DNA from: Nitrospirota bacterium
GTDB taxonomy: Bacteria; Nitrospirota; Nitrospiria; Nitrospirales; Nitrospiraceae
Direction: 5' to 3'
Length of the DNA: 64,000 nucleotides
NCBI GenBank assembly: GCA_963701855.1
Contig: CAVPBK010000006.1
Location: forward strand, 1,120,001-1,184,000
Part shown: piece after piece, positions 55,492 to 64,000 of the stretch
How positions within the stretch are numbered: the stretch's first letter is position 1
Layout of the letters: each line of letters opens with the position of its first letter
Program-made: the position numbers and the translations under genes
Notes under the pieces: model-generated
Database searches by the model: none
Seen by the model: the letters and a program-made list of their open reading frames with translations, nothing else
What the model was told of the DNA's origin: nothing

Positions 55492-56787
55492 ATGTCTATA
55501 CATGACGATTTGTATGATGTTGCGGTGGTCGGTGCTGGCGCCGCCGGTCTGGCAGCTTCGATTTTCGTGGCAGAGACGGCCGCGAAGGGCGATCGCGTTC
55601 AGAGGATTGTGCTGCTCGATGGTGTGAAAACGATCGGCGCCAAGATCCTCGTCTCCGGAGGCGGGCGCTGTAATGTGACGCACGAGGCCGTCATCCCCAC
55701 CGACTACTTTGGCAATCGCCGGATCATCAAGAATGTGCTGGCGGCGTTTTCCGTTGAGCAGACCGTGAAGTGGTTTGCCTCGTTAGGGGTCGAGCTTAAA
55801 CGCGAAGAGACCGGGAAGCTCTTTCCCGTTACCGACAACGCACGAACTGTCCTGAACGCGCTTGTTGATCGCTGTCACGCGCTTGATGTCGCCATTCGCC
55901 CGGACCATCGGGTAACGAGCATCGAAAGTCGAGGTGGGTTAGAACCTGGATTTATCCTGCACCATACCCACGGGATTCTATATGTGAAGAAGGTTATTCT
56001 GGCAACCGGAGGCCGATCGATCCCCAAATCGGGGAGCGATGGATTCGGCTACGAATTAGCGCGACGTTTGAGTCATTGGGTGACGGCCACTGTCCCGGCA
56101 CTCGTGCCACTAATGCTTGACGACCAGATGTTTCATAAGACACTCTCCGGTCTCTCGCATAACGTCGAGTTGACCACTATGGTGAAGGGTCGCGTCGTCG
56201 ACCGCCGGACAGGGAGTTTACTCTGGACCCACTTCGGCATCAGTGGGCCAGTGGTCATGGATGTGAGCCGCTTCTGGACACTTGGGCATGAGCAGGGAGA
56301 AACCGTAGAGGTTTATGGAAACTTCTTGATCGGTCAGACACAAGAACAGGCAAAGTCGTGGGTTATGGAGCAAGCGAAGGGCAATCCCCGGCGATCATTG
56401 CTGAAGACATGGGCGCAACAGATACCAGAGCGGTTTGCCGAAGCACTCTGTTCCCACGTCGAATGCGATCCCAAGACGGCGATTGCACAACTGCCGCGAA
56501 AAGACCGAGATCGTCTGCTCGCTGCACTGACCAAGTTTAAATTCCCAGTCAAACACGATCGAGGTTGGAACTATGCCGAGGTCACAGCCGGTGGTGTGCC
56601 GCTCGAAGAAATCAACTTTCGGACTATGGAATCCAAGCTGGTGCCGGGCCTCTATCTGATTGGTGAGATTCTCGACTGCGACGGCCGGATCGGCGGGTTC
56701 AACTTCCAATGGGCCTGGGCGACGGGATTTCTGGCTGGCCGTGCGATCGTGTCCTGTCGCCGATCAGATTATTCGCAAGGCGGCTGA
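55492..56787 (+). CDS. BaiN/HI0933 (YhiN) family flavoprotein
   Basis: GAGAAG, KILVSGGGRCNVT, THFGISGP, TAGGV, GGFNFQWAW. Confidence 0.92.
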   Translation: MSIHDDLYDVAVVGAGAAGLAASIFVAETAAKGDRVQRIVLLDGVKTIGAKILVSGGGRCNVTHEAVIPTDYFGNRRIIKNVLAAFSVEQTVKWFASLGVELKREETGKLFPVTDNARTVLNALVDRCHALDVAIRPDHRVTSIESRGGLEPGFILHHTHGILYVKKVILATGGRSIPKSGSDGFGYELARRLSHWVTATVPALVPLMLDDQMFHKTLSGLSHNVELTTMVKGRVVDRRTGSLLWTHFGISGPVVMDVSRFWTLGHEQGETVEVYGNFLIGQTQEQAKSWVMEQAKGNPRRSLLKTWAQQIPERFAEALCSHVECDPKTAIAQLPRKDRDRLLAALTKFKFPVKHDRGWNYAEVTAGGVPLEEINFRTMESKLVPGLYLIGEILDCDGRIGGFNFQWAWATGFLAGRAIVSCRRSDYSQGG

Positions 56788-56832: not shown

Positions 56833-57192
56833 TCAGGCCGCATTGACTTGTGGTCTGGCGTCGTCCTTCAACCCCCCAAATTTGGACTCATATTCGGCGA
56901 CCACACGATTGAGCACGGCGGCCAACCGTTTTGCCGCAAAGGGGTTCAGCACGATACGATTCGTCAGCTGAACCTGGATATTCGCCTGCGCCCGCTCCCA
57001 CACGTTATTGACGCCAAAGGCCAGCACCACTTCTTCACGGGTCGAAGATACGTTGCACACGTTGGCGTAGGAACTCTGAAGATTGGAGACATCAAACTGG
57101 ACCGTCGGAGTGGCATTGGTTGGCTGGCTTGGATGTGACGGGCTTGCCAAGGATAGGCCCGTTGCATTCGCCGTTGATCCTGCCTCTTTCAT
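56833..57192 (-). CDS. DUF3467 family protein
   Basis: SSYANVCNV..TREE..L.FG, RIVLNPFAAKRL, YESKFG; GGAGG RBS. Confidence 0.82.
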   Translation of the reverse strand: MKEAGSTANATGLSLASPSHPSQPTNATPTVQFDVSNLQSSYANVCNVSSTREEVVLAFGVNNVWERAQANIQVQLTNRIVLNPFAAKRLAAVLNRVVAEYESKFGGLKDDARPQVNAA

Positions 57193-57521
57193 AAAGACCT
57201 CCCTGGTGATGGGTGAAACCGTTCTCAACCGAAAGAAACACATTCCCAACATCTTGTACGCAGGCTAGCAAGAAATGTGACGCACAAAAAGGAAAAACAG
57301 GATTTGTGCGATCGTTTCCGTGCCACCGAGGCTGTTCATCGCGACCACGCGGTGAGGGGATGTACAAATGCGGAAAAATGATGACAAACCACAGCAGTCA
57401 AGTACTCTGATAACAATCTACGCAGGCATTGAGCCGGTCGGTGGTCGGGCAGCAGAGCGCGGTTGTCTGTCGCCGCGCGAAATAGGTCTGGTTCAAGTGG
57501 TGCGCCTATGCAGAAAGTGAC

Positions 57522-59060
57522 ATGGTGAACGAACCGAATTCTCCAGCTGACCGCTCTCGAGGCATAGCTAGCCCGTTACTGGTGGTACTGACGATTCTCG
57601 CTGCCATAGGTCTCAGCAGTTGTGCCGTCACACCAATACCGTTGACGAGGGAAGAGGTGCGATCACGAGCGCAAGAAGATCGGGCCGTTCTAATAAAGGA
57701 TCAAGAGCCTGTCTCGGGCCCGATCGATCTCTACGAAGCAATGGCGCGGGCGCTGAAGTATAACCTCGACGCGCGTGTCGAGCTGATGCACAAGATGCTG
57801 GCACAGACGCAACTTGATCTGTCTCACTATGCCATGTTGCCTCGTCTCGCGGCGAACGCTGGATTCGACGGTCGCGATAATTACTCGGGAGGAGTTGGGC
57901 GGTCCTTGGTTACAGGGATAGATAACCTCTCACCTTTTACCTCTTCCGAGAAAAACGTATTCTCCGCCGATCTGTCGCTTAGTTGGAATGTGTTGGATTT
58001 CGGAATGTCGTACATCCGAGCGAAGCAGGCAGCCGACGACGTGTTGATCGCTGAAGAAGAGCGTCGGCGTGTGGCTAATCGGGTGATGCAGGATGTGCGG
58101 GCCGCCTATTGGCGTGCCGTCAGCGCGGAACGAATTCTCCCCTCACTCAAGATGCTGGATGAATGGGTGAAGACCGCGCTGGAAAAAGCCCAAGCAGTTC
58201 AGGACGAGAAACTGAGTACGCCACTGGTTCCCTTGCAGTACAGGCTAGAACTCCTCAATACCCAACGCTACATTCAACAGTTATTCCGGGAACTCAATAT
58301 TGCGAAGCTTCATTTGGTCGCGCTCATCAATCTTCCTCCAGGCCAGGAGCAAGAAATGAAGCTCATGGTTCCGGAGCGAGAGGCTGGAACGCTGAACCTT
58401 CCGCTGGATATGACGATGCTGGAGGATCGAGCTCTGGAAGCACGCCCGGAACTGAGGCAGATTGATTATCGTCGTCGCATCAACGCGCGCGAGACTAAGG
58501 CGGCGATTCTCGAAATGATCCCCAGCCTGAATTTCCAAGTCGGCGGGAACTACAATGGCAACGCGCTTCTCTTCCATCAGCATTGGGCCGCCTATGCAGC
58601 CCGGACCAGTTGGAATTTGCTGAACATCTTTCGGTATCCAGCCCGGGCGAAGACCATTGAGGCTCAAGATAAGGTGCTACACACGCAGAACCTCGCACTG
58701 ACCATGGCCATCATGTCGCAGGTGCATGTCAGCGTGGCACAGGTGGCATATGCGAAGAAAGAAACCTCTACGGCGAAGCTCTATCACGATACGCAGTCCC
58801 AAATTTCCGAGCAGACTCGATTAGGTTGGCGGATCGGACGGCAGAGCGAACAGGCTGTGCTGCGCGAACGAGTCAATCAGGTGGCGGCACAACTGCGATA
58901 CGATGCCATAGAATCCGAACTCCAAACCTCCTGGGCCTCGCTCCTGGCCGCCATTGGAGAAGATGTACTGCCCAACGATCTGACGCGGGAACAGAGCGTG
59001 TCCGACCTCGCCCTCGAAATTCGTACGCGATGGGCGAAAAGCAAGGAGTTGATCAAGTGA
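57522..59060 (+). CDS. TolC-family outer-membrane efflux lipoprotein
   Basis: Lipobox LSSC; EAMARALKYNLD, LSWNVLDFG, DVRAAYWRA, RPEL. Confidence 0.9.
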   Translation: MVNEPNSPADRSRGIASPLLVVLTILAAIGLSSCAVTPIPLTREEVRSRAQEDRAVLIKDQEPVSGPIDLYEAMARALKYNLDARVELMHKMLAQTQLDLSHYAMLPRLAANAGFDGRDNYSGGVGRSLVTGIDNLSPFTSSEKNVFSADLSLSWNVLDFGMSYIRAKQAADDVLIAEEERRRVANRVMQDVRAAYWRAVSAERILPSLKMLDEWVKTALEKAQAVQDEKLSTPLVPLQYRLELLNTQRYIQQLFRELNIAKLHLVALINLPPGQEQEMKLMVPEREAGTLNLPLDMTMLEDRALEARPELRQIDYRRRINARETKAAILEMIPSLNFQVGGNYNGNALLFHQHWAAYAARTSWNLLNIFRYPARAKTIEAQDKVLHTQNLALTMAIMSQVHVSVAQVAYAKKETSTAKLYHDTQSQISEQTRLGWRIGRQSEQAVLRERVNQVAAQLRYDAIESELQTSWASLLAAIGEDVLPNDLTREQSVSDLALEIRTRWAKSKELIK

Positions 59061-59845
59061 CCCGTCTCAGCTGGCCACTAGCTTGTGGCTGTATCATGGG
59101 CCTGTGGTTCCTGATGCCGATGTGGCTCGCGACGGCCGGCACCAAGTCAGATCCCAAGCCCGCCAGCAGCGCGGCAGAACTCAGCACGATCCGTGGGCTC
59201 GTGAAGGCGACCGCGCAAGCCACCTTAGCCAGCCAGGTTCAGGGCCGGATCAGCCAGCTGCCGTTCAAGGAGGGGCAGCGGTTTAAAAAAGGAGCCATCC
59301 TGGTTGCCCTCGATTGTTCGAAGTATGAGGCGGAACTGGCGAGCGTCCAGGCGGAATATCGCGGCAAGAGGAAGACCTACGAGAACAACGTCCAGCTCGC
59401 TAAACACCAAGCCGTTGGTGAACTCGAACTCGTGGTCTCTCAGGCCGATGCGGAGAAAGCGTTTGCCGCTGTGAAGGTCGCGCAAGTCAATGTGACCGGC
59501 TGCACCGTGCGCGCACCGTTTCCTGGACGTGTCGTCAAAATGATCGTGAACGAACACGAGAATGTATTTCCCAACGACCAGCTCATAAGCCTGTTGGATG
59601 ATAGCCTACTGGAGATCGAGCTCATTCTGCCGTCGAAGTCTCTCGCGTGGCTGAAGGTCGGCACGCCGTTCGATTACACCGTCGATGAAACGGCACTTCG
59701 GTATCCCGCGGTGGTGCAGGACATCGGCGCGAACGTTGATCCTGCCAGCCAGACAGTGAAGGTGAAGGGTTTGTTCCGCGCCCAGCCGGACAATGTGCTG
59801 GCAGGCATGAGCGGAACCGCCTCCTTCACGGAGCTCCCACGCTAA
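59057..59845 (+). CDS. Periplasmic adaptor (HlyD/RND MFP), short
   Basis: GRI..L..KEGQRFKKG, APFPGRV, VDPASQT, LAGMSG; GTG start overlaps the TolC stop. Confidence 0.88.
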   Translation: MTRLSWPLACGCIMGLWFLMPMWLATAGTKSDPKPASSAAELSTIRGLVKATAQATLASQVQGRISQLPFKEGQRFKKGAILVALDCSKYEAELASVQAEYRGKRKTYENNVQLAKHQAVGELELVVSQADAEKAFAAVKVAQVNVTGCTVRAPFPGRVVKMIVNEHENVFPNDQLISLLDDSLLEIELILPSKSLAWLKVGTPFDYTVDETALRYPAVVQDIGANVDPASQTVKVKGLFRAQPDNVLAGMSGTASFTELPR

Positions 59846-59847
59846 AT

Positions 59848-61212
59848 ATGAACGCAGCAGAAAGTAAGCCACCCAGCCTGCCGAAGAACGCGGTAGTCTA
59901 CACGTTGCTTCAGGTGGAAGGGAAGATTCGCGCCGTCCAGAACCAGCAAGAACTACAATTTCTCTTCGTCAATGAAACGCGTCGGTTGGTTCCCTATCAA
60001 CAAGCAATACTGCTCAGCCCGCTGACCCCGTCGGCACAAAGTTATCAGGTAAGAGCCGCATCGAGTATCCCGGTGGTGGATCGCACCGTGCCCTTGATGC
60101 AATGGACCGAGCGATTGATTGGAGGTCTGCGCAAGACTTCGACAGGGCCGGACATGTGTCACGTCACGGAAACGGATTGCCCTGCCGAGCTCAGACCAGA
60201 CTGGAAAGAATTTACTCCAGGCTATGGATTGTGGTGCCCTCTCAAGCACCCCGGGGGACAGATTATTGGCGGCCTGTGGATGACGCGGGACCAGCCCTGG
60301 GCAGACCATGAGGTGCCGATCCTGCAGCGTCTCAGCGAAGCCTATGCCTATGCCTGGCACGCCGTCGGCCGATCGAACAGCCGTCGGTGGAGATGGGGAC
60401 TGAGCCGGACCACGACATGGATACTCGCAATTGCAACGCTGGGCGCACTGGCCATTCCCGTCCCCATGTCGACGCTGGCGCCTGCGAAGATTGTCGCAAA
60501 GGATCCCCTGATCGTGAGCGCGCCGATCGATGGTGTCATCGCCGAGATTCTCGTCCTCCCCAATACTGTCGTGTCCGAAGGCCAAGTGTTGTTCAAGTAC
60601 GAAGACACCACGTTCAGAAGCGAGTATGACGTTGCGGAACGGAACCTTGATGTGGCGATGGCGCAGTATCGGCGCGCGGCGCAAGGCTCATTCGTAGAAG
60701 CCGACCAAAAGGCCGATGTTCCGTTGTTGAAAGCCGAAGTCGAGTTGCGAGAAACCGAGCGGAACTATGCCCATGAACGATTGACGAAGGTCGAGGTGAA
60801 GGCGGAGCAGGCCGGGCTGTTGCTCTACTCGGACAAGTCCGATTGGATCGGAAAGCCGGTCGTGGTCGGCCAACGCATCATGGAACTGGCGAACCCACAG
60901 CAGCTGGAGGTGCGGATCGATCTGCCGGTGGAGGATGCCATTGTGTTGCGCGAAGGCGCATCGGCGACGCTGTTCCTGAATGCCAATCCTTTTTCCAGCG
61001 TTCCTGCTACGGTCAGTCATGCGAGCTACCATGCCGAGGTCTTGCCGAACAATACGCTGGCCTACCGTGTGACGGCACAGCTCGAGCAAGGATCATCGGA
61101 ATTCCGCATAGGCTGGCAAGGCAGCGCAAAAATATACGGAGAGCAGGTGCTGCTGTTCACCTATCTGTTCCGTCGCCCGATTTCCGCCATCCGACCATGG
61201 ATCGGCCTATGA
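59848..61212 (+). CDS. HlyD-family adaptor with N-terminal cytoplasmic GAF-like domain
   Basis: About 185-aa N-terminal domain, one TM, VSAPIDGVI biotinyl-lipoyl motif, G.AKI, YLFRRP. Confidence 0.85.
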   Translation: MNAAESKPPSLPKNAVVYTLLQVEGKIRAVQNQQELQFLFVNETRRLVPYQQAILLSPLTPSAQSYQVRAASSIPVVDRTVPLMQWTERLIGGLRKTSTGPDMCHVTETDCPAELRPDWKEFTPGYGLWCPLKHPGGQIIGGLWMTRDQPWADHEVPILQRLSEAYAYAWHAVGRSNSRRWRWGLSRTTTWILAIATLGALAIPVPMSTLAPAKIVAKDPLIVSAPIDGVIAEILVLPNTVVSEGQVLFKYEDTTFRSEYDVAERNLDVAMAQYRRAAQGSFVEADQKADVPLLKAEVELRETERNYAHERLTKVEVKAEQAGLLLYSDKSDWIGKPVVVGQRIMELANPQQLEVRIDLPVEDAIVLREGASATLFLNANPFSSVPATVSHASYHAEVLPNNTLAYRVTAQLEQGSSEFRIGWQGSAKIYGEQVLLFTYLFRRPISAIRPWIGL

Positions 61213-63341
61213 AACTGACAACGCCGCCCACGCAGGATGTCGCGTTACCGCTGTTGCGCGGGGATCTCCAGCTCATCGAGGGTGGCTCGGCCGCCGATGG
61301 TTCGCCGACTTGGGTCATCGTCGATCCGGTCCGCGGGAAATATTTTCAGATCGGCTGGGCGGCCTACCAGATTCTGTCGCGCTGGGACGCCCAATCCGCG
61401 GAGGCCATCCTCGCGCAGATCCATACGGACACGACCTGCCGAGCCACAAAGCATGACGTCGAGGATCTCCTCCGATTTTTGTATGCCAACCATCTGATGC
61501 GCGATCCGCCGCAGGGTGGGTATCGGGCCTATGCCGAGCAAGCAGAGGCTGCGCGGCCATCTTGGGTGACCTGGCTGGTGCATCACTATCTGTTTTTCCA
61601 GATTCCACTCCTCCGGCCGGATCGGTTTCTTCGTGCCACGCTTCCGTTCGTGGACTGGCTCTATTCATGGGCTGTGGCCTGGGCGATCGGCGGTATCGGG
61701 TTCATCGGACTGTATCTGGTCTCGCGCCAGTGGGACACCTTCATGGCCACCGCCCTGCATTTTTTCACCCCCCGTGGCTTCGCGCTGTACATCCTCTGTC
61801 TGGCCTTCGTCAAGGTATTCCATGAACTCGGGCATGCCTATACGGCGACGCGCTATGGCTGTCGGGTTCCCACCATGGGCTTTGCCATGGTTGTAATGGT
61901 GCCGATGCTGTATTCAGACACTTCAGATGCGTGGAAATTAGCCTCCCGTCGTCAGCGTGCCGCGATCGGCGCTGCCGGTATGATCGTTGAATGCGCGTTG
62001 GCCGCCCTGGCGATCTTCGCGTGGAACTTTCTTGACGACGGCCTGGCGCGGAGTCTGGTGTTTATCGTGGCGACCACGAGCCTAATGGTCGGTGCTGCCA
62101 TTAATTTGAGCCCGTTCATGCGATTCGATGGGTACTATGTGCTTTCTGACTGGCTGGGCATTCCCAACTTGCACGATCGAGCCTTTGCCTTCGGGCGGTG
62201 GCAGCTACGGCGCCTTCTGTTTGGTTTGGATAGACCGATGCCCGAGCCGGTGACCGCTGCCCGACGCCGACTCTTGGTCTGGTTCGCCTGGGGAGTCTGG
62301 GCGTACCGTTTTACGCTGTTTCTCGGCATCGCGCTGATGGTGTACCACTATTTTTTCAAACTTCTGGGCCTGATTCTATTTGCCATTGAGATTGGGTGGT
62401 TCATCGTGCTCCCGATGGTGGGCGAACTGAAGATCTGGTGGGCCTTGCGCGGAGAAATCATCGAACGTCGGAGGGGGTGGCTCTCCGCCGGGGTGCTGGC
62501 CTGTGTCATCGCCGTACTGTTCGTGCCCTGGTCCGATCGCATCAGCCTCCCTGCGGTGTTGGAGTCGACGCCGCACGCGACAATCTATGCGCCAGCGCCC
62601 GGGAGGATCGTCGAACTGTCGGTGAAAGAAGGGAGGCTGGTGGGGGTGGGGGATAGGCTGGTTGTATTGGAGTCTCCCGCACTTGAAAAGGATATGGCGT
62701 TGACACGCAAACGGATCGAGGTTGAGAGATTGAGAAGCCAGCGACAGTTCGTCGATCGAGAAGAGCTCGCGAAGCACCAGGTAACGTTGGAAAACCTGAG
62801 GGCGCGCCTCTCACAGCTTGAAGGCCTGCTCCAGCAGCAACAGAACCTGTCACTAACGGCGCCGATTGCGGGAGTGGTGACCGACCGAGTGGAGGCCCTG
62901 CACGTGGGTCAGTGGATCAACAAGCAACTGCCGCTCGCATACGTGATCGATCCGGCCGGTGAAGAACTGCATGCGCTGGCTCCCGAGACAGACGTCGGCT
63001 ATCTCCACGAGGGTCAATCAGCCCGATTCATTCCAGAAGGTCCGGATCGGCCTAGCTTGGAGGCGCAGGTTACCGAGATTCGAGGCATCGACGAAAGCAG
63101 CTTCACGGTGCCCTACCTCCTCTCCGTCTATGGCGGAGATGTATCAGTTCGTGAAGATGCCAATCATAGACTGAAGCCCGAAACCTCCGTCTATCGCATC
63201 ACGCTGCATCTCGTCGAGTCGCCGCCACGATGGAACCAAGCCGTGCGAGGAACCGTGCTGGTGAAAGGCCCTCGTATCAGCTTTGCTCAACGAGCTTGGG
63301 AACAGACCGCCCGCATCTTCATTCGCGAAAGCGGTGCGTAG
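61209..63341 (+). CDS. Site-2-protease (M50)-like membrane domain fused to a HlyD adaptor, with PqqD-like N-terminus
   Basis: HELGH and NLSPFMRFDGYY motifs; C-terminal APAPGRI / APIAGVV hairpin motifs. Confidence 0.88.
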   Translation: MKLTTPPTQDVALPLLRGDLQLIEGGSAADGSPTWVIVDPVRGKYFQIGWAAYQILSRWDAQSAEAILAQIHTDTTCRATKHDVEDLLRFLYANHLMRDPPQGGYRAYAEQAEAARPSWVTWLVHHYLFFQIPLLRPDRFLRATLPFVDWLYSWAVAWAIGGIGFIGLYLVSRQWDTFMATALHFFTPRGFALYILCLAFVKVFHELGHAYTATRYGCRVPTMGFAMVVMVPMLYSDTSDAWKLASRRQRAAIGAAGMIVECALAALAIFAWNFLDDGLARSLVFIVATTSLMVGAAINLSPFMRFDGYYVLSDWLGIPNLHDRAFAFGRWQLRRLLFGLDRPMPEPVTAARRRLLVWFAWGVWAYRFTLFLGIALMVYHYFFKLLGLILFAIEIGWFIVLPMVGELKIWWALRGEIIERRRGWLSAGVLACVIAVLFVPWSDRISLPAVLESTPHATIYAPAPGRIVELSVKEGRLVGVGDRLVVLESPALEKDMALTRKRIEVERLRSQRQFVDREELAKHQVTLENLRARLSQLEGLLQQQQNLSLTAPIAGVVTDRVEALHVGQWINKQLPLAYVIDPAGEELHALAPETDVGYLHEGQSARFIPEGPDRPSLEAQVTEIRGIDESSFTVPYLLSVYGGDVSVREDANHRLKPETSVYRITLHLVESPPRWNQAVRGTVLVKGPRISFAQRAWEQTARIFIRESGA

Positions 63342-63494
63342 GAGAAATGTAGGAGGTCAGCCCTCACTGTCGACCCCCTCTAAAGTGTCAGGCCAGAAAA
63401 AGTCGTCCTAGGGCGCATTCTGTAGCCCTCAGCGAACCTCCCTACCAAGAGCACTATAACTCGGCTGCACAAAAGAAGAAATTAGTAAGAGGAA

Positions 63495-63510
63495 TGGCAC
63501 CCTCCTTGCT
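63495..63510 (+). promoter_or_regulatory. Sigma54 -24/-12 promoter
   Basis: TGGCACCCTCCTTGCT, consensus match, 46 nt before the ATG at 63557. Confidence 0.8.
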
Positions 63511-63556
63511 ACAGTATTGCGGGTAATAATGGACGTATGCTGTCTCAAGCCATACC

Positions 63557-64000
63557 ATGAAAATACTACGTAGGCAGAAGAAAGCGGCGGGCAAACCAGC
63601 GCGAGGGCAGCGTCCTGCCTCCGCGGACACACGCATCACTCTTTCGACGTTTGGTGGCTCGTTGATTGCGCTCGAATCGCGCATCATGTTTGACGGCGCT
63701 GCCGTAGCCACGGTCAGTACTGTGACCACCGAGCAAATCGCGCAAAGCCAGGCTGATAAGGCTCTCTCGAATCATGACGCGGCGGCAGCCGATAGCGCGC
63801 CTGCTGCGCCGACGGGCGACCCGCACTCTACTACCAGCGACCAGGCGTTGTTCGATGCCCTGGCGGCATACGATACATCGGCCGCCCGCCAGGAGGTTGT
63901 GTTCCTTTCCCCCAGCGTCCTTGACTACCAGCAACTCCTCGACGGCATCAGTCCCAACGTCGAAGTGCACATACTCGACCCTGGCCGCGACGGCGTTCAG
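63557..64000 (+). CDS. LEPRxLL-motif / DUF4347 secreted protein, N-terminus only (runs off window)
   Basis: Open to the window end: MKILRRQKK...ALESRIMFDGAAV...EVVFLSPSVLDYQQLLDGISPNVEVHILDPGRDGVQ. Not in the ORF track. Confidence 0.85.
   Translation, partial: MKILRRQKKAAGKPARGQRPASADTRITLSTFGGSLIALESRIMFDGAAVATVSTVTTEQIAQSQADKALSNHDAAAADSAPAAPTGDPHSTTSDQALFDALAAYDTSAARQEVVFLSPSVLDYQQLLDGISPNVEVHILDPGRDGVQ

Follow-up and report, generated by a model that had tools for sequence, protein, structure and literature searches.

An ABC-less TolC/adaptor cassette with a site-2-protease fusion next to a giant, N-terminally tagged DUF4347 protein in Nitrospiraceae

The locus and its genes

We analyzed a 64,000-nt stretch of DNA, referred to below as the window, from a Nitrospirota bacterium of the Nitrospiraceae (assembly GCA_963701855.1, contig CAVPBK010000006.1, positions 1,120,001-1,184,000 of the forward strand; genome size 4.3 Mb). 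At its downstream end lie four gap-free genes on the plus strand, overlapping or abutting each other, which encode a TolC-type outer-membrane factor (OEP), a short HlyD adaptor, a second adaptor, and a fusion of an RRE-type domain, an M50 site-2 protease and an HlyD-type adaptor domain. A giant DUF4347 gene begins 215 nt further on, and a DUF3467 gene is divergent from the operon (Table 1), as a first-pass annotation of the DNA had already described. Relatives with 96-99% identity are Nitrospiraceae genomes.

The start codon of the short adaptor is a GTG at 59057, which overlaps the stop codon of the TolC-type gene (GTGA) and is preceded by AAGGAG 7 nt upstream; likewise, the ATG of the fusion overlaps the stop codon of the second adaptor (ATGA). 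Three cassette proteins are HlyD-type membrane fusion proteins according to HlyD_3 or HlyD_D23 matches. The overlapping or abutting starts, together with the presence of HlyD_3 in all three proteins, bear out the first-pass description of four tightly coupled genes with three adaptor domains. The N-terminus of the TolC-type protein ends in LSSC and is lipoprotein-like, and the short adaptor carries a hydrophobic 19-mer at residue 8. The second adaptor is composed of a divergent, GAF-like cytoplasmic N-domain of about 185 aa, a single transmembrane segment near residue 192 and the HlyD domain. Pfam gave no GAF match in the window's own protein, while it did so in 3 of 30 homologues and, at 8.9e-11, in a distant paralogue; the earlier label "GAF-like" therefore needs qualification.

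Table 1. Features of the cassette and its neighbours, in window coordinates
Feature	Position	Strand	Basis or remarks
DUF3467 gene	56833..57252	-	divergent from operon; PF11950, 73.9 bits
TolC-type outer-membrane factor (OEP), operon gene 1	57522..59060	+	PF02321, 112.6 bits, two stretches
Short HlyD adaptor, 262 aa, N-terminal hydrophobic anchor or signal	59057..59845	+	TIGR01730 RND_mfp, 118.9 bits (cut-off 94.9); HlyD_3
Second adaptor, 454 aa	59848..61212	+	HlyD_3, 54.6 bits; cytoplasmic N-domain, transmembrane segment, HlyD domain
RRE / M50 site-2-protease / HlyD fusion, 710 aa, about seven hydrophobic segments	61209..63341	+	Pfam, NCBIfam, alignments, predicted fold
Predicted RRE (PqqD-like) leader-recognition domain, fusion residues 12-102	61242..61514	+	structure match (VIA-align, Foldseek)
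HELGH zinc motif, fusion residues 205-209	61821..61835	+	invariant H205, E206, H209
N-x-x-P-x-x-x-x-D-G motif, fusion residues 299-308	62103..62132	+	invariant N299, D307, G308
C-terminal HlyD-type adaptor domain of fusion, about residues 450-710	62556..63338	+	HlyD_3, 60.2 bits; HlyD_D23
Giant putative substrate gene, 5,843 aa, starts in window, ends at contig position 1201088	63557..64000	+	genome open reading frame
Leader tag L-E-S-R-I-M-F-D-G-A, giant residues 39-48	63671..63700	+	conserved in aligned leaders

Predicted fold of the fusion protein

The fusion matches Peptidase_M50 (PF02163) with 34.1 bits (cut-off 27.2). Its best NCBIfam match is the daptide intramembrane metalloprotease (NF041824, 172.2 bits, under the cut-off of 300), followed by a weaker one to YydH/LiaK (NF058609, 26.3 bits, under the cut-off of 225), and both cover the N-terminal two thirds of the protein. 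H205, E206, H209, N299, D307 and G308 do not vary in either of two alignments (39 and 38 sequences, 35-88% identity), which shows that the predicted site-2-protease centre is intact. The HELGH and asparagine-proline-DG motifs reported in the first-pass annotation are therefore present, except that four residues and not three separate the proline from the DG pair.

A model of residues 1-430, generated from 38 sequences, reached a predicted local distance difference test score (pLDDT) of 82.8 and a predicted template modelling score (pTM) of 0.74. Residues 12-102, with strands at 21-24, 35-39 and 44-48 and helices at 50-57, 64-74 and 81-93, match lasso-peptide RRE proteins that were solved together with their leader peptides (VIA-align; 6jx3_B, Z 9.1, root mean square deviation (rmsd) 2.9, 82/85 aligned; 5v1u_B, Z 8.8; 5v1v_A, Z 8.6). 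Foldseek assigned the domain to 5v1v_A with a probability of 1.00, and the same residues also match the RRE portions of LynD, MccB and CteB with Z of about 6. The PqqD family of Pfam (PF05402) had no match in the window's fusion; a distant paralogue matched it at E 3.9e-4, below the cut-off. What had been labelled "PqqD-like" is hence not a Pfam assignment in this protein, and it is the predicted fold, with its matches to solved RRE domains, that supports an RRE/PqqD-type N-domain. The protease core, residues 186-318 and beyond, matches RseP (7w6y, Z 10.8, rmsd 2.9, 130 aligned), MjS2P (3b4r_A, Z 9.6; Foldseek E 7.3e-4) and SpoIVFB (8vjl_A, Z 9.5); Z scores under about 13 can arise in helical folds from arrangement alone, and in the fusion core the zinc motifs agree with the match. 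Because hydropathy indicates seven hydrophobic segments and the HExxH helix is oriented as in RseP, the model would place the RRE domain in the cytoplasm, the active site at the cytoplasmic leaflet and the HlyD domain in the periplasm. The earlier proposal that the M50 domain conducts the substrate found no support.

The giant DUF4347 protein and its N-terminal tag

The gene downstream of the cassette comprises 5,843 codons in the genome. Its product has a basic N-terminus with 9 K/R in the first 30 residues, the tag at residues 39-48, no Sec signal by hydropathy count, and a DUF4347 domain (PF14252, 178.5-182.3 bits) from residue 114, in agreement with the basic N-terminus, LESRIMFDG, DUF4347 and missing Sec signal of the first-pass annotation. 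The tag is of the LEPR type with S instead of P; LEPR-XLL is an NCBI domain name according to the available part of its source (PMC10868602). Across 24 aligned leaders, L39, E40, R42, D46 and A48 are invariant. A six-frame search of the 4.3-Mb genome gave a single match to the tag pattern, namely in the giant open reading frame (ORF), which is more than chance. We found the strict pattern in 81 of 91 Nitrospirota loci and in 10 of 57 loci from elsewhere (10 kb flanks); the latter count is low because the giants there sit upstream of the cassette, with starts beyond these flanks.

The sole strongly hydrophobic 19-mer of the giant lies at residue 5759 and is followed by a basic tail with 18 K/R, and Nitrospirota giants have such a conserved C-terminal hydrophobic module and basic tail in common. 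The last 195 residues, which hold the hydrophobic segment and basic tail, matched no Pfam or NCBIfam family. When the leader, the first 778 residues and these last 195 were compared with NCBIfam, no model was matched at E up to 1. The gene contains repeats that are 99% identical, 5.1 copies of 435 nt and 31.1 copies of 354 nt (L195:3342-16510), the copy number of which may be uncertain in the assembly.

No linked motor, and conservation of the cassette

Searches with Pfam and NCBIfam revealed no ABC, RND or SecA-like gene in the operon, and no transporter gene in the 19 kb past the giant gene or adjoining upstream. On the contig, the nearest ABC_tran matches over cut-off are about 45 kb upstream and the nearest ACR_tran match is about 95 kb upstream. 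We compared 148 related loci, made up of 79 from Nitrospiraceae and 69 further ones, mostly from Proteobacteria (Alpha-, Beta-, Gamma-, Zeta-) plus Desulfobacterota and others. Within the fetched flanks, SecA-like genes were linked in none of them, ABC genes in 10 (mostly kilobases off) and an RND gene in one; ABC genes within about 2 kb of the fusion were confined to two loci (L148 and L150). The SecA query was sensitive enough, since it detected truncated paralogues at 32-38% identity where these are present. Moreover, in all 11 genomes with the window-type cassette that we inspected, SecA is present in just one copy, which has the canonical length; that of the window's own genome has 931 aa. 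The absence of ABC and RND genes from the cassette, here and in its relatives, is thus supported, and the earlier claim holds also beyond the end of the window.

The order of TolC, short adaptor, GAF-type adaptor, fusion and tagged giant is kept in Nitrospiraceae down to a fusion identity of 47-51%. The N-terminus of the giant was seen in 69 of the 79 Nitrospiraceae loci, the misses being mostly short contigs, and all four cassette genes are present in 49 of the 69 further loci. In proteobacterial loci, the usual place of the giant is upstream of TolC (8 of 10 loci listed). The start of this upstream giant carries DUF4347 in four of five genomes tested, and the tag is present in all five DUF4347 loci fetched. 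The fusion family is large, with 12,747 representatives at E ≤ 1e-3 and 3,582 clusters at E ≤ 1e-30.

Two side observations concern individual members. For L152 and L162, an open giant ORF occupies the first base of a contig of 225,753 nt, the opposite end of which cuts off a DUF4347 ORF. The contig ends seem to divide one gene, as they would in a circular replicon. In a complete Nitrospira genome, the fusion match falls into three pieces with a stop codon in each (G270:C1:3040429-3042562 and 2703666-2703875); this fusion gene is possibly decaying.

Co-occurrence of the fusion with DUF4347

The phylogenetic profiling that had been suggested along with the first-pass annotation showed that the fusion and DUF4347 co-occur in two unrelated lineages. 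Among 301 genomes of the phylum (fusion threshold E ≤ 1e-20), the fusion was found in 36 and DUF4347 likewise in 36; 32 genomes have both, four only the fusion, four only DUF4347 and 261 neither. One of the four fusion-only genomes has its match at a contig end, and two hold only a 26% paralogue. In 151 genomes around a Pseudomonas genome, the corresponding numbers are 51, 10, 1 and 89. Copy numbers in this sample go in the same direction, with exactly two DUF4347 matches in 12 of the 19 genomes that have at least two fusion matches. The window's own genome has one fusion gene and one DUF4347 gene, which are adjacent. The tables were tallied by hand from the listed rows, and no statistical test was applied since the genomes are related. 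Together, these data show a one-to-one genomic partnership of the fusion with tag-bearing giants.

Predicted complex of leader and fusion

We predicted the complex of fusion residues 1-430 with leader residues 1-80. The score was 0.60 (0.62, 0.60 and 0.56 in individual runs), compared with 0.00 for the best of three controls; contact agreement between runs was at least 47% and the pLDDT of the partner at least 44. The mark for this score is passed by 116 of 157 solved complexes and by 2 of 215 mismatched pairs, and a passing score of 0.60 or under was obtained for 18 of the 157 solved complexes and for both passing mismatched pairs. As solved RRE-leader complexes exist, the score may reflect likeness only. 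For the idea that the PqqD-like domain reads the leader, raised in the first-pass annotation together with this prediction, the outcome is weak support.

Related modules and known systems

An in silico study by Kamneva, Poudel and Ward (2015, PLoS One; PMC4452313) described a module of GAF-HlyD, M50-HlyD, HlyD, a truncated SecA_DEAD protein and sometimes an OEP, without an ABC gene, and its available text proposes the M50 protein as the membrane part. The window's cassette resembles this module in combining GAF-HlyD, M50/HlyD and HlyD genes without an ABC gene, although the GAF part is weakly detectable here (3/30 homologues). It differs in having TolC first and no SecA paralogue in the locus or the genome, and the two types of fusion are 26-29% identical. 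The available text makes no connection between the published module and giant tagged proteins as substrates, an RRE domain or DUF4347 (PMC4452313).

We located the SecA-bearing module, beside proteins with LE-x-R-type tags, at L088 and L188 of other Nitrospira and at L190 and L193 of Burkholderiales. In Nitrospira (L088:7578-20000, L188:8522-19295) it consists of GAF-HlyD, a PqqD-like/M50/HlyD fusion, HlyD, OEP and a SecA of 696 aa without the C-terminal parts; at L088 a C39-ABC gene stands at its end. Between its adaptor genes lies an ORF of 690-715 aa with a basic N-terminus and an LE-A-R-V-L-L tag (identified by eye in the 715-aa ORF). In two Nitrospira genomes where the SecA-bearing paralogue is the sole type present, a profile of the 24 leaders matched nothing. 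In Burkholderiales, the module precedes giants with a C-E-P/A-R-V-L-Y-S-A-D tag and similarity to DUF4347. Judged from sequence, there thus appear to be two related cassettes for LE-x-R-tagged proteins: one brings its own SecA-like ATPase, and the window's has none.

In the literature, we found no mechanistic study of the M50/HlyD fusion cassette or of LEPR-XLL or DUF4347 export. The corresponding statement in the first-pass annotation stands for mechanism, while the sister module had been described in silico, without a substrate link in the available text (PMC4452313). A preprint on giant genes (10.1101/2023.11.21.568195), which we considered, concerns other proteins as far as its available part goes.

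Type I secretion systems (T1SS) such as HlyBD-TolC and LapBCE/LapA as well as peptidase-containing ABC transporters (PCAT) have an ABC motor, and in PCAT a C39 protease is fused to the inner-membrane component. Like these systems, the window combines a TolC-type channel and HlyD adaptors with a nearby giant repetitive adhesin and a protease fused to the inner-membrane part, and, as for Lap, cyclic di-GMP (c-di-GMP) genes are located near the cassette. In contrast to type I systems and PCAT, it has no ABC gene, a putative N-terminal instead of a C-terminal signal and three different adaptors, and its protease is a predicted membrane-embedded zinc site-2 protease rather than a cytoplasmic cysteine protease. 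With the M50 proteases of ribosomally synthesized and post-translationally modified peptides (RiPPs; daptide, YydH/LiaK), the fusion shares the RRE fold and the HExxH centre; unlike them, it has a C-terminal HlyD domain and a partner of 5,843 aa instead of a small peptide. RseP, SpoIVFB and MjS2P are similar in their core fold and in the HExxH and N..P....DG motifs, whereas the N-terminal RRE domain and the C-terminal adaptor are particular to the fusion, in which no PDZ or CBS domain and no sigma/anti-sigma context was seen.

A putative leader-guided envelope machine and its alternatives

We lean slightly towards the reading that the four genes encode an envelope machine which is guided by the leader and dedicated to the giant DUF4347 adhesin next to them. 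In such a machine, the cytoplasmic RRE domain would bind the basic N-terminus and the LE-x-R-x-M-F-D tag of the nascent giant, and the M50 centre, located at the cytoplasmic leaflet as in RseP, would clip the leader. This step would be similar to the C39 domain of peptidase-containing ABC exporters, which cuts leaders at the transporter entrance. The three HlyD-type adaptors, one of them within the fusion, may assemble, by our prediction as a mixed hexamer, under the TolC trimer to form a periplasmic tunnel, through which the chain would leave N-terminus first. In Nitrospira, the C-terminal hydrophobic segment and basic tail might then remain in the inner membrane as a tether for the adhesin. 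The energy would come from outside the cassette; since a truncated SecA paralogue belongs to the sister cassette, we would guess at the housekeeping SecA.

Several points weigh against this reading. Every functional step of the machine is one that we infer, and the cassette contains no identified inner-membrane channel or energy source; M50 proteases are not known for translocating proteins. Binding of the leader rests on a complex prediction that lists no contacts and that supports it weakly. Regarding the giant, "no Sec signal" is a matter of hydropathy count, and RTX-type repeats could lie in its middle, as the Pfam scan covered the first 778 and the last 195 residues. The C-terminal hydrophobic module is confined to Nitrospirota, whereas the conserved stretch at the end of proteobacterial giants is another one and not hydrophobic; tethering would therefore not be a general feature. 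The co-occurrence counts come from related, non-independent genomes, and DUF4347 was not found in 10 of 61 (Pseudomonas-centred sample) and 4 of 36 (phylum) fusion-bearing genomes. One Pseudomonas genome (G307, locus L153) has a TolC-first cassette with an upstream ORF of at least 1,965 aa and no DUF4347 anywhere; the tag may travel with other N-terminal domains, too.

With respect to the ends of proteobacterial giants, we observed that they have in common a short polar S/L-F/L-S/T-x-Q-x stretch about 40-60 residues from the C-terminus (L110, L113, L129, L135, L140, L148, L151, L152, L158).

A more far-reaching version of the proposed machine would be a distinct secretion route and not a type I variant. 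Here, the RRE/site-2-protease/adaptor fusion would replace the ABC protein, read the leader and feed giants N-terminus first through a three-adaptor/TolC tunnel without a dedicated ATPase, and the C-terminal anchor in Nitrospira would make a single chain span the envelope. We put this forward tentatively and regard it as possible though doubtful. An explanation to which we assign a lower probability, and which we consider unlikely, is that the role of the cassette is limited to processing, docking or anchoring the giant, while a transporter encoded elsewhere, for instance the canonical C39-ABC T1SS or Sec, provides passage across the inner membrane. The missing motor would fit well with this, as would the window's own genome, which has 42 ABC_tran matches and, on another contig (L196:1873-15646), a complete T1SS with three RTX-repeat ORFs, a 731-aa C39-ABC protein, HlyD and OEP. 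In addition, a C39-ABC gene ends the sister cassette of another Nitrospira, and in L148 and L150 the distance of ABC genes from the fusion is at most about 2 kb. However, ABC genes were present in the fetched flanks of only 10 of 148 loci, and the canonical T1SS comes with its own RTX substrates, adaptor and OEP. Since this complete system exists elsewhere in the genome, the ABC-less cassette can be argued to be a separate device, with cross-use possible. The giant furthermore ends in a hydrophobic anchor and not in a recognizable type I signal, and the cassette's own TolC and three adaptors would be hard to explain for a mere protease.

S2P-family proteases such as RseP and SpoIVFB cut transmembrane segments. 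The fold of the fusion would therefore also be compatible with regulated release, in which the M50 domain cuts the C-terminal membrane segment of the giant, or another membrane protein, in response to signals that the GAF-like domain and the downstream c-di-GMP genes would sense, and thereby frees or remodels the adhesin. The conserved hydrophobic module of Nitrospirota giants and the PAS kinase, GGDEF and PilZ genes after the giant gene speak in its favour. Nevertheless, we judge regulated release improbable: proteobacterial giants without a hydrophobic C-terminus still keep the cassette, and among the features of the partners it is the N-terminal tag and the RRE domain that are conserved universally. 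Least of all do we expect that the cassette matures or exports a small peptide of the RiPP or bacteriocin type and that the giant is a coincidental neighbour. The database name "putative peptide zinc metalloprotease", the daptide protease as best NCBIfam match (172.2 bits) with YydH/LiaK as a weaker one, and the fact that RRE domains are typical of RiPP pathways all point in this direction. Yet the daptide score stays under the cut-off of 300, the ORF lists of the operon contain no small precursor gene or modification enzyme, and in two lineages the fusion co-occurs with tagged giants and adjoins them, which makes this explanation highly improbable.

Giant adhesins drive biofilm formation and surface attachment, and the only established TolC export route for them that we know of requires an ABC transporter and a C-terminal signal. 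The pump-less fusion and tagged giants are found in Nitrospira, which are key nitrifiers, as well as in Pseudomonas, methanotrophs, rhizobia and marine bacteria. If the proposed machine is indeed an exporter, it would represent a new logic of leader-guided protein secretion and would take site-2 proteases and RRE domains beyond their roles in signalling and peptide natural products. As cultured, non-pathogenic hosts such as Methylomonas methanica (L148), Halomonas cupida (L143) and Niveispirillum irakense (L152) carry the same TolC-first cassette, the question of export is directly testable.

DUF3467 and the genomic surroundings

The divergent gene encodes a DUF3467 protein, which had been taken for a chaperone in the first-pass annotation. 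We dropped this assignment: the model, three strands and a helix with a pLDDT of 71.6, has no convincing structural match. A sequence search of solved structures gave no match, Foldseek found nothing better than E 0.13, and the top scores of a wide structural search, Z 5.2 for COMM domains and Z 3.8-4.5 for Pur-alpha and the PC4 type, are too weak to name a fold. DUF3467 was found in 46 of the 301 phylum genomes; as the gene occurs in 15 of 36 genomes with the fusion and in 31 of 265 without it, it is neither necessary nor specific. Beside the cassette, we found it in 26 of 79 Nitrospiraceae loci, all with a fusion identity of at least 77%. Eleven copies from nine genomes lie 2-4 kb from a fusion gene, five at the window-type cassette and six at the distant paralogue, the SecA-bearing context of which was confirmed in two genomes other than those with the DUF3467 copies. 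Two further copies are divergent to DUF4347 genes. The linked copies form a subgroup with a short insertion, and overall DUF3467 is a real but accessory partner of the cassette.

Contigs from three RNA libraries of two studies cover 29, 30 and 24 of the 30 bins between positions 56700 and 64000 at a likeness of at least 90%; DNA carry-over is possible, and we did not count this as expression. Past the giant gene (L001:589-5648) follow a PAS histidine kinase, a receiver/HisKA protein, a receiver/GGDEF cyclase and a PilZ protein, which together possibly constitute a c-di-GMP control module for the adhesin.

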